In this document: positions 46,416-48,335 of the stretch, one piece after another
How the letters are laid out: each line of letters opens with the position of its first letter
Numbering within the stretch: the first letter of the stretch is position 1
Sequence record: PQ471515.1
DNA: 64,000 bases
Source: Escherichia phage Turkey3
Reading direction: 5' to 3' (one strand)
Position numbers and translations under genes: made by a program
Notes under the pieces: generated by a model
What the model saw: only the letters and a program-made list of their open reading frames with translations
Told to the model about the DNA's origin: nothing
Database searches by the model: none

Positions 46416-46443
46416 GGGACTCTTCGGAGTCCCTTTTCTTTTT
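46416..46443 (+). terminator. Intrinsic terminator after the capsid gene
   Basis: GGGACTC-ttcg-GAGTCCC hairpin followed by a T run. Confidence 0.7.
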
Positions 46444-46454
46444 ATTAAAAACCC

Positions 46455-46483
46455 TTGACAAAATATTATTGGATGTGTATAAT
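46455..46483 (+). promoter_or_regulatory. Consensus sigma70 promoter TTGACA-N17-TATAAT
   Basis: Exact hexamers at optimal spacing about 30 nt upstream of the 46516 ORF. Confidence 0.6.
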
Positions 46484-46515
46484 ACGCACATACACGCAAA
46501 CAAAGAGACAGAATT

Positions 46516-47613
46516 ATGCCAAATGTAAGTATCAACAAAGAAGAGTTTATCAACCAAATGACTGCTAAGTATGGAGAATTCGATTTCAGTACTTTAGTAT
46601 TCAAGGCAAGTAAGACAACAGTGAAATGTAACAAGTGTGGAAAAGAAAACACCAAACCTGCACTTCGTCACATTGCATGTACATGTGCATCATGTTATTC
46701 AAACATGTCACAACGTTCAAACAACGACACATTCATCAGTACTGTAGAAACTAAATTTGGAAAAGATAAATTCAAATTTGATAAACTAAATTACACTAAT
46801 GCTATATCAAAAGTAACAATTTTCTGCACAGATGAAGATCACAATGATTACTTTGAAATTACACCAAATAAATTTCTTTCTGGTAAAGGATGCCCCGTAT
46901 GTAATAAAAATGAAGCATACAGTACTGAAGAGTTCAAAGAAAAAGTAAAAGATAATTATGGTGATTTATTGGATTTAACTAACACGGTGTATGTAAATCA
47001 AAAAACTAAAGTAACTGTGTATTGTAAAGCAGGTAATCATGAATGGACAGTTGATCCAAAAACTTTACTTGTTGGCAAGACTGGATGTGGTACATGCTCC
47101 GGTAAAGGCGGTCGAAGTACTGAACGTTTCATTGAACTTGTGTCGCCTATCCATAACCATAAGTATGATTATAGCTTGGTGGATTACAAGACTAGTGATG
47201 AACATGTGGATATTATTTGTCCTGAACATGGTGTCTTTAAACAAATACCCAAATCTCATATGGCAGGAAGAGGATGTCCATCATGTGGTGAGTATGGTTA
47301 TCAACCATCAAAGCCTGGATATTTCTATGTACAAAAACTATCTAATAACTCAAAAGTCGTTTACAAATACGGAATTACTGGTGACATGAAGAGGCGAATT
47401 CATGAACAAAGCCGTGATTCTGATTTTGAACACACTGTACTGGTAGAACGTTACTTTGAGGATGGTAACAAACCATTATTATTGGAAAAGTTCATCAAGC
47501 AATACATTGAAAGTGGTGTTGTAAGTACTGAAGAGTTACCATCAGGATTTACTGAAACTTTTGATGCTAAGTATCTTGAAAGTGTTTTGGAAATCGTAAA
47601 TACTTTTAAGTAA
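46516..47613 (+). CDS. GIY-YIG/T5orf172-type nuclease-like protein with four N-terminal zinc-ribbon repeats (homing-endonuclease-like)
   Basis: Four ~45-aa repeats each ending G(x)GC(P)xCxxK; C-terminus GYFYVQKL...VYKYGITGDMKRRIHEQ follows the GIY...YIG...R...H order. Confidence 0.55.
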   Translation: MPNVSINKEEFINQMTAKYGEFDFSTLVFKASKTTVKCNKCGKENTKPALRHIACTCASCYSNMSQRSNNDTFISTVETKFGKDKFKFDKLNYTNAISKVTIFCTDEDHNDYFEITPNKFLSGKGCPVCNKNEAYSTEEFKEKVKDNYGDLLDLTNTVYVNQKTKVTVYCKAGNHEWTVDPKTLLVGKTGCGTCSGKGGRSTERFIELVSPIHNHKYDYSLVDYKTSDEHVDIICPEHGVFKQIPKSHMAGRGCPSCGEYGYQPSKPGYFYVQKLSNNSKVVYKYGITGDMKRRIHEQSRDSDFEHTVLVERYFEDGNKPLLLEKFIKQYIESGVVSTEELPSGFTETFDAKYLESVLEIVNTFK

Positions 47614-47636
47614 ACAACCATAAGGAGTTGACACGG

Positions 47637-47987
47637 ATGTTAACTGTATACATTTTTAAGAAAGAAGAGTACTTAAAGAGTCAGTACTCAAAAATTGAGA
47701 TTAATGTTCCATACGGAACTTTAGTTGGTTATGATGAAGCTAGTGAAACTTTGTATTATAATGATGATAGACTGGACTATAGTATTGATTCATTTATTGA
47801 AGACATACTTGATAGTAACACTGAAGATATGTTATATGAAGAATACTTAGATAAGTACAAAGAACGTATGTCAAAGTTACATGCTGATGCTCCAGTACTG
47901 AACATTTCAAAAACTCCTTCTGAATTCGAGCCACAAAACCCATTCCAACGCCTAATTGATGCTGGGGTAAATTTCCGAATTACTTGA
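47637..47987 (+). CDS. Hypothetical acidic protein
   Basis: ORF track start 47628 is TTG; the ATG at 47637 has a TAAGGAG RBS. Confidence 0.45.
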   Translation: MLTVYIFKKEEYLKSQYSKIEINVPYGTLVGYDEASETLYYNDDRLDYSIDSFIEDILDSNTEDMLYEEYLDKYKERMSKLHADAPVLNISKTPSEFEPQNPFQRLIDAGVNFRIT

Positions 47988-48026
47988 TTAATAAATATCT
48001 TCATATTACTGATGGAGATATTTTCT

Positions 48027-48335
48027 ATGTCACAGATATGTTATGTTATAGTAAATGATGCGTGGCCTGATTATGTTAAGATAGGATTTACCAGTAAATC
48101 TGAAATGACAGAACGTTTAAGGACATATCAAACTGCTACACCTTTTAGAGATTTTGTGGTATACCATGAAGTACACTTTGAAGATGCACGTTTAGCAGAG
48201 AAAGAAATTCACAAAAGACTAAAACAAATGAACGCAGTAAGGCAACCTAACACCGAGTGGTTCAAGATGCCTAAGAAGATAGCAGCGAACATCGTCGATT
48301 CTGTTCTTGACGATATGGAAAACGACTTGCTATAG
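48027..48335 (+). CDS. Stand-alone T5orf172/GIY-YIG-like domain protein
   Basis: YVIVNDAWPDYVKIGFTSKS...RLRTYQ...EIHKRL...EWFKM; start taken at the ATG at 48027 (GGAGA RBS) rather than 48012. Confidence 0.5.
   Translation: MSQICYVIVNDAWPDYVKIGFTSKSEMTERLRTYQTATPFRDFVVYHEVHFEDARLAEKEIHKRLKQMNAVRQPNTEWFKMPKKIAANIVDSVLDDMENDLL

Follow-up and report, generated by a model that had tools for sequence, protein, structure and literature searches.

Do the three genes that separate the capsid gene from a tail fibre gene in this jumbo phage form one mobile unit, or does only part of the locus move? A sequence-only reading of the window (by which we mean the whole 64,000-nucleotide stretch analysed) had described them as a three-gene mobile cassette inserted after the capsid gene. 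We propose a narrower answer. We think it quite probable that a free-standing homing endonuclease gene (HEG) of the T5orf172 family, made up of the first gene, ORF1, and the promoter belonging to it (46444-47636), occupies a hot spot on the capsid side of the locus, and that the second and third genes, ORF2 and ORF3, are residents.

The phage sequenced here is a jumbo coliphage of the 121Q/PBECO4-like group: megablast places the region among the Asteriusvirus phages. All of the features described here lie on the + strand. The major capsid protein gene (45196-46371) encodes a T4 gp23-like protein (Pfam Gp23, 1.5e-89; phrog_138, 1.3e-97) that is 98–100% identical in amino-acid sequence in the Asteriusvirus genomes compared, and 90–92% identical in other genera. 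It is followed by an intrinsic terminator (46415-46434), composed of an 8-bp GC-rich hairpin, AGGGACTCTTCGGAGTCCCT, and a T-run, and then by a predicted sigma70 promoter, TTGACA-N17-TATAAT (46455-46483), that matches the consensus at 12 of 12 positions. Three open reading frames come next: ORF1 (46516-47613; 365 amino acids), ORF2 (47637-47987; 116 amino acids) and ORF3 (48027-48335; 102 amino acids). Terminator, promoter and reading frames are all as the sequence-only reading had them. The positions of the ribosome-binding sites and the lengths of homologues make 47637 the likely start of ORF2, rather than the TTG at 47628, and 48027 that of ORF3, rather than 48012. The right-hand neighbour is a tail fibre gene (48377-50086; phrog_13229, 8e-243; Pfam Gp53-like_C). 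The promoter is the sole zero-mismatch match to TTGACA-N17-TATAAT in the 64 kb; with up to one mismatch allowed, the sigma70 consensus occurs four times in the window, against 1.35 expected. Another motif, TAATAAATA, a candidate late promoter 5' of ORF3 and of the fibre gene, is not enriched (four found, 2.15 expected).

Comparison with about 36 sequenced relatives shows that the polymorphic part of the locus is ORF1 and its promoter only. The variable insert (46444-47636; ~1.19 kb) comprises the promoter and ORF1, plus a short junction on the right that runs to the ORF2 ATG, and its edges are the points at which alignments to empty-site relatives break: those of fEgEco12 and PBECO4 stop at ~46443-46450 and restart at 47637. 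The slot is bordered on the left by the capsid terminator, the sequence of which is the same in occupied and empty sites, and on the right by ORF2. The capsid gene is the conserved, essential neighbour of this homing slot. Even in phages with 100% identical flanking proteins, the nuclease gene in the slot is one of five, unrelated to each other or diverged, or is missing altogether. Class A occupants (365–368 amino acids), to which ORF1 belongs, are found in 11 phages and the window; class B (300–307 amino acids) in nine phages and EC.P1; class C (332 amino acids) in three phages; and class D (406 amino acids) in one. Class E, present in two phages, is an unrelated 532-amino-acid DUF7487/REase-like protein. 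At least seven phages have an empty slot, among them PBECO4, fEgEco12, CMSTMSU and several Salmonella relatives (Salmonella SD phages), and in these the terminator is separated from the ORF2 ATG by 47–55 nt. The scaffold, capsid, ORF2 and ORF3 proteins of fEgEco12 (empty), WPEC5/Ecwhy_1 (class B), TH47 (class C) and the window (class A) are 99–100% identical. By these alignments, ORF1 is hosted by an intergenic hot spot adjoining the capsid gene terminator. Occupants of classes A, B and D are preceded by homologous promoters; in empty sites, the stretch from the terminator to the ORF2 ATG was found to have none on the + strand. On this evidence, the promoter moves together with the occupant of the slot. 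A DNA repeat search of the region found no terminal inverted or direct repeats around the insert (only short degenerate repeats that mirror the repeats of the protein), and a transposon-type element is therefore ruled out.

What, then, of the cassette that was originally proposed, in which promoter, ORF1, ORF2 and ORF3 would move as one, inserted between capsid gene and fibre gene? In its favour, the genes lie side by side in one orientation, a single strong promoter precedes them and no terminator intervenes, and two of the three encode T5orf172 domains. We nevertheless consider it extremely improbable because ORF2 and ORF3 occur in every relative examined, including empty-slot phages and other genera; because exchange tracts end at the start of ORF2; and because both genes track the divergence of the phage backbone. 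The proposal was thus one-third right. Its own suggestion, that the junction be checked for emptiness in related phages, bore fruit for ORF1 and its promoter, whereas ORF2 and ORF3 are always there; for these two alone, conservation in all relatives with normal divergence, the pattern named beforehand as evidence against mobility, is what is seen. Both are kept in 21 of 21 loci examined, with the exception that ORF2 is fragmented in Salmonella phage PHA46, where ORF3 is intact. They also lie between the capsid and fibre genes in Mimasvirus CBB, Eneladusvirus pEa_SNUABM_49 and Klebsiella fENko-Kae01, and in other genera ORF2, although syntenic, is 28–34% identical and ORF3 68–77%. Judged by synteny and divergence, ORF2 and ORF3 belong to the ancestral gene set of this clade of jumbo phages, and lie outside the mobile element; in the present genome, transcription from the ORF1 promoter probably extends into them as well. 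ORF1 does not stand out as foreign by its base composition: its GC content is 31–37%, against 32–34% for ORF2 and ORF3; that of the capsid gene is 44–49%.

ORF1 does not appear to travel alone. Towards its 3' end, the capsid gene contains a hypervariable tract (46100-46320) in which differences to relatives with the same backbone cluster, and in which all of these are synonymous: ~23 differences occur in these 221 nt, against ~10 in the preceding 2400 nt. The tract splits class A carriers from all other phages, across backbones. Over the last 98 nt of the gene, class A carriers of any backbone differ from the window at three sites or fewer (seven of seven), and phages without a class A occupant, again of any backbone, differ at 10 or more (10 of 10). 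The best database matches to 46090-46450 are class A carriers with another backbone. Between the window and WPEC3, which has the same backbone, divergence is limited to 46100-47600. Between the window and CRJP21, which has a divergent backbone, a near-identical tract spans 46200-47400, within which the promoter region (46400-46600) is less conserved than the rest. By these comparisons, ORF1 moves together with the final ~270 nt of the capsid gene.

Part of this tract merits particular attention. In the five alleles inspected, the 61 nt from 46260 to 46320 encode the identical peptide, TTFLTRYGYVQLTDSTSSLGNA, and yet nucleotide identity between alleles is 61–80%, indicating heavy synonymous recoding. 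The allele of this patch tracks the occupant of the slot, at least for class A. Recoding and tracking together make the patch a probable zone of cleavage or co-conversion, and 46260-46320 is our candidate recognition and cleavage region. It could instead be plain hitch-hiking of the donor flank. Class B phages have the same patch allele as the empty sites, and so the patch is not a resistance determinant for every class.

The protein encoded by ORF1 has the build expected of an enzyme that might act in this way. It matches phrog_681, ‘endonuclease’, at 7.3e-76. Amino acids 3–263 (46522-47304) form four tandem zinc-finger repeats, and amino acids 264–365 (47305-47610) a C-terminal T5orf172 domain. 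The earlier description, of four zinc repeats fused to a GIY-YIG-like C-terminus, stands in outline; the repeats are 63–68 amino acids in length, not ~45. When aligned, they share invariant F, C, P and C..C columns. Pfam DUF4379 is matched above its cutoff (26.8 bits; cutoff 24.5), and CapR (19.5 bits) and DUF723 (16.0 bits) are matched below theirs, on repeats other than those matched by DUF4379; an ORF1 homologue from Turkey5 matches CapR at 1.1e-10. We predict that the repeats constitute a DNA-binding array. The Turkey5 protein also has weak tblastn matches at ~63600 and 4450 of the window, which are not significant. ORF1's own Pfam matches to T5orf172 (16.3 bits; cutoff 20) and MUG113 (17.9 bits; cutoff 22.3) are sub-threshold, and the profile–profile match of its C-terminal family to the ORF3 family is weak; we base the domain assignment on the phrog_681 match and on the finding that nine of nine slot homologues match Pfam T5orf172 (best, 5.5e-7). 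The C-terminal part of phrog_681 also matches ORF3 (3.8e-6), and overall the GIY-YIG/T5orf172 relationship claimed for both proteins is upheld by profile searches. Residues Y15, Y27-K28-x-G30, R38, E59/E68 and T90-E91-T92 are invariant across classes A to D in an alignment of the domain, and we infer that they are equivalent to catalytic positions of I-TevI and Odn; candidate catalytic residues, the intactness of which had been singled out for checking, are conserved in ORF1 and ORF3 alike.

From 47074 to its stop codon, ORF1 is nearly identical to the class B allele of WPEC5/Ecwhy_1: classes A and B have repeat 4 and the nuclease domain in common, and different N-terminal repeats. Homologues of ORF1 occur in 937 phage records, including the ‘putative homing endonuclease’ of ICP1. 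A PDB sequence search with ORF1 returned nothing meaningful, and NCBIfam has no match for ORF1, ORF2 or ORF3. Matches of ORF1 to Cas12 zinc ribbons in PADLOC are chance, and we reject them as evidence of a defence system. Beyond ORF1 and ORF3 themselves, neither tblastn nor HMMs built from the ORF3 family and from the C-termini of the slot proteins found paralogues of either gene in the 64-kb window.

ORF1 is predicted, on this evidence, to be a new member of a homing endonuclease family that has already been described. Zinc-finger repeats joined to a T5orf172 domain are a recognized putative homing endonuclease architecture in Vibrio phage ICP1 and in T5-like and Plateaulake-like phages; 87% of T5orf172 HEGs have CapR, DUF723 or DUF4379 repeats, and 31% are near capsid genes (Barth, Dunham & Seed 2023, PMC10448857). 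The build of ORF1 likewise has two parts, zinc-finger repeats arranged like beads on a string and then the T5orf172 domain. Like these HEGs, it is free-standing beside an essential (capsid) gene at a locus common to other HEG classes, shows domain shuffling between alleles, and is situated on a boundary of genetic exchange. The present case differs in that the Asteriusvirus jumbo coliphages go unmentioned in that paper, in that a single slot has at least five alternative occupants and empty sites among near-identical genomes, and in the sharply bounded, synonymously recoded patch in the capsid gene.

Comparison with the seg homing endonucleases of phage T4, also made in the sequence-only reading, is apt for ORF1. 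The T4 Seg (GIY-YIG) and Mob (HNH) enzymes are free-standing, intergenic homing endonucleases with their own promoters, located between conserved genes. They cut the neighbouring conserved gene away from the insertion, co-convert flanking markers and display presence/absence polymorphism. ORF1 resembles them in being an intergenic gene with its own promoter, in flank co-conversion, and in presence/absence polymorphism. In Seg proteins, a canonical GIY-YIG domain at the N-terminus precedes the DNA-binding modules, which are of NUMOD or helix-turn-helix type; in ORF1, in contrast, the order is reversed (DNA-binding repeats N-terminal, nuclease C-terminal), and the nuclease is of the T5orf172 branch of the superfamily.

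By analogy with these T4 enzymes and with the T5orf172 genes of ICP1, homing is the likely mechanism for ORF1. Host RNA polymerase would transcribe the gene early, from the consensus promoter, and the four zinc-finger repeats are expected to recognize a DNA site of some length. When a carrier and a relative without the ORF1 allele infect the same cell, the enzyme would cut the relative's genome. The cut would probably fall in the capsid gene, at its conserved 3' end (candidate, 46260-46320), and repair off the ORF1-bearing genome would then copy ORF1 and, with it, ~270 nt of flanking sequence from the 3' end of the capsid gene. Carriers would be resistant because this flank is synonymously recoded. 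The rapid gain, loss and replacement of occupants in otherwise identical genomes, and the co-transfer of the flank, are our reasons for viewing ORF1 as undergoing selfish turnover. To our knowledge, homing by a T5orf172 HEG has no experimental demonstration; what has been demonstrated is nuclease activity, for Odn, and DNA binding, for CapR.

Could ORF1 have been domesticated, as Odn and CapR were? The T5orf172 nuclease activity of ICP1 Odn (Gp88) is lost in the E180A mutant (PMC8263062), and CapR, from PLE, has a zinc-finger DNA-binding domain with a site at the capsid operon (PMC8096241). Odn has its T5orf172 nuclease domain in common with ORF1, and CapR its zinc-finger DNA-binding domain; both are domesticated derivatives of T5orf172 HEGs that act at specific DNA sites. 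In Odn, however, targeting is by a RepA_N domain, and in CapR the nuclease domain is absent, whereas ORF1 keeps both HEG halves and undergoes selfish turnover. A domesticated ORF1 might be a CapR-like regulator of the capsid operon or an Odn-like defence or exclusion nuclease, active against competitors or satellites. CapR-type domains can repress a capsid operon sequence-specifically (PMC8096241), a T5orf172 nuclease has been recruited against satellites (PMC8263062), and ORF1 has a strong early-type promoter and a place beside the capsid gene. Against this, at least five different occupants, one of them of an unrelated nuclease class, replace each other in otherwise identical genomes; flank co-transfer is a signature of selfish turnover rather than of a retained host function; and the nuclease motifs are intact, unlike in CapR, which lacks the domain. 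Domestication strikes us as distinctly unlikely, and a selfish homing endonuclease remains our preferred reading of ORF1. Homing and competitor exclusion are, for ORF1, mutually compatible.

The residents are of a different character. ORF2 is a fast-evolving protein, and an acidic one as had been noted, with a pI of 4.4 and 23 D+E against 12 K+R. It matches phrog_15724 (function unknown) at 3.5e-52, a set of 1.84 billion proteins contains 23 representatives of its family, and its AF2 model is poor (pLDDT 64). ORF3 is indeed a stand-alone T5orf172/MUG113 domain (T5orf172, 50.6 bits, 3e-13, cutoff 20; MUG113, 48.8 bits, cutoff 22.3). Its fold is GIY-YIG, beta-beta-alpha-beta-alpha, and the closest solved folds are SLX1 domains; a PDB sequence search with the ORF3 profile found nothing meaningful. 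Residues Y6, R30, E58/E60 and E77 are invariant. Like the SLX1 catalytic domain, the UPF0213/YhbQ-like proteins and T4 endonuclease II, ORF3 is a small, single-domain GIY-YIG fold with conserved Tyr, Arg and Glu. Such conservation suggests a minimal nuclease domain without a DNA-binding part, and one that is apparently catalytically competent.

ORF3 is not a recent copy of a slot gene: when its family is compared by hhalign with that of the ORF1 C-terminus, the probability is only 17% over 41 columns, and the two T5orf172 domains are therefore distant. Might it be a functionless remnant, in decay, of an old homing endonuclease, left after loss of the DNA-binding half? In favour of this, ORF3 is a nuclease domain that lacks a targeting domain, and it is found at a hot spot for homing. 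Across 25 clusters, however, the family retains its length (~100–108 amino acids), 63–100% identity and 38 invariant columns, including all catalytic-type positions, and it keeps the same locus across at least four genera. This conservation implies purifying selection rather than decay, and makes the remnant very improbable.

It is also conceivable that ORF2 and ORF3 work as a pair, the acidic protein binding and controlling the minimal nuclease as an inhibitor, immunity protein or activator; the process served might be, for example, the degradation of host DNA, superinfection exclusion or recombination. Linkage of the two genes is strict in all the genera compared, ORF2 evolves much faster than ORF3, and ORF3 combines catalytic-type residues and a GIY-YIG fold with the absence of a DNA-binding domain. 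SLX1, which has the nearest solved folds, works with a partner subunit, SLX4. ORF3 also matches two candidate defence proteins, PDC-S57 and PD-Lambda-1, in their T5orf172 domains; these PADLOC matches are domain-level only, and we reject them as evidence of a defence system since they reflect the shared domain. Profile, defence-system and fold searches found no link of ORF2 to inhibitor, immunity or nuclease-partner families, leaving the nuclease/immunity or exclusion module that had been suggested as an alternative without support there, and PHA46, with ORF2 in fragments and ORF3 intact, argues against an essential antidote. Such a pairing is, in our estimation, unlikely.

A more ambitious reading joins slot and residents. 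In this, the slot would be an arena in which at least five homing endonuclease lineages compete for 46260-46320. The recoding, which is saturated at synonymous sites, would directly reflect selection to resist cleavage, each allele an ‘immunity sequence’ matched to its endonuclease, and ORF2 and ORF3 would be a domesticated minimal T5orf172 nuclease and its acidic partner, with a real phage function, possibly the processing of DNA breaks at the hot spot. We offer this tentatively, as a possibility that we would not expect to hold in full.

The finding is largely ordinary, inasmuch as only ORF1 and its promoter are mobile, the family to which ORF1 belongs has already been described, and ORF2 and ORF3 are old residents. 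Current concepts of homing endonucleases are unchanged by it. It does set right the annotation of a gene trio that recurs in 121Q/PBECO4-like jumbo phages, and that public records label variously as ‘endonuclease’, ‘homing endonuclease’, ‘DNA polymerase II’ and ‘hypothetical protein’, and it tells the selfish part, ORF1 with its promoter, apart from the two residents, which are conserved. Phage engineers may find in the slot a site that naturally tolerates insertions, along with a promoter that is portable and, as predicted here, strong. And for T5orf172 homing, the locus is a natural experiment, in which near-isogenic, sequenced phages differ in the occupant of the slot, or have none, and for which there is a 61-nt candidate target.

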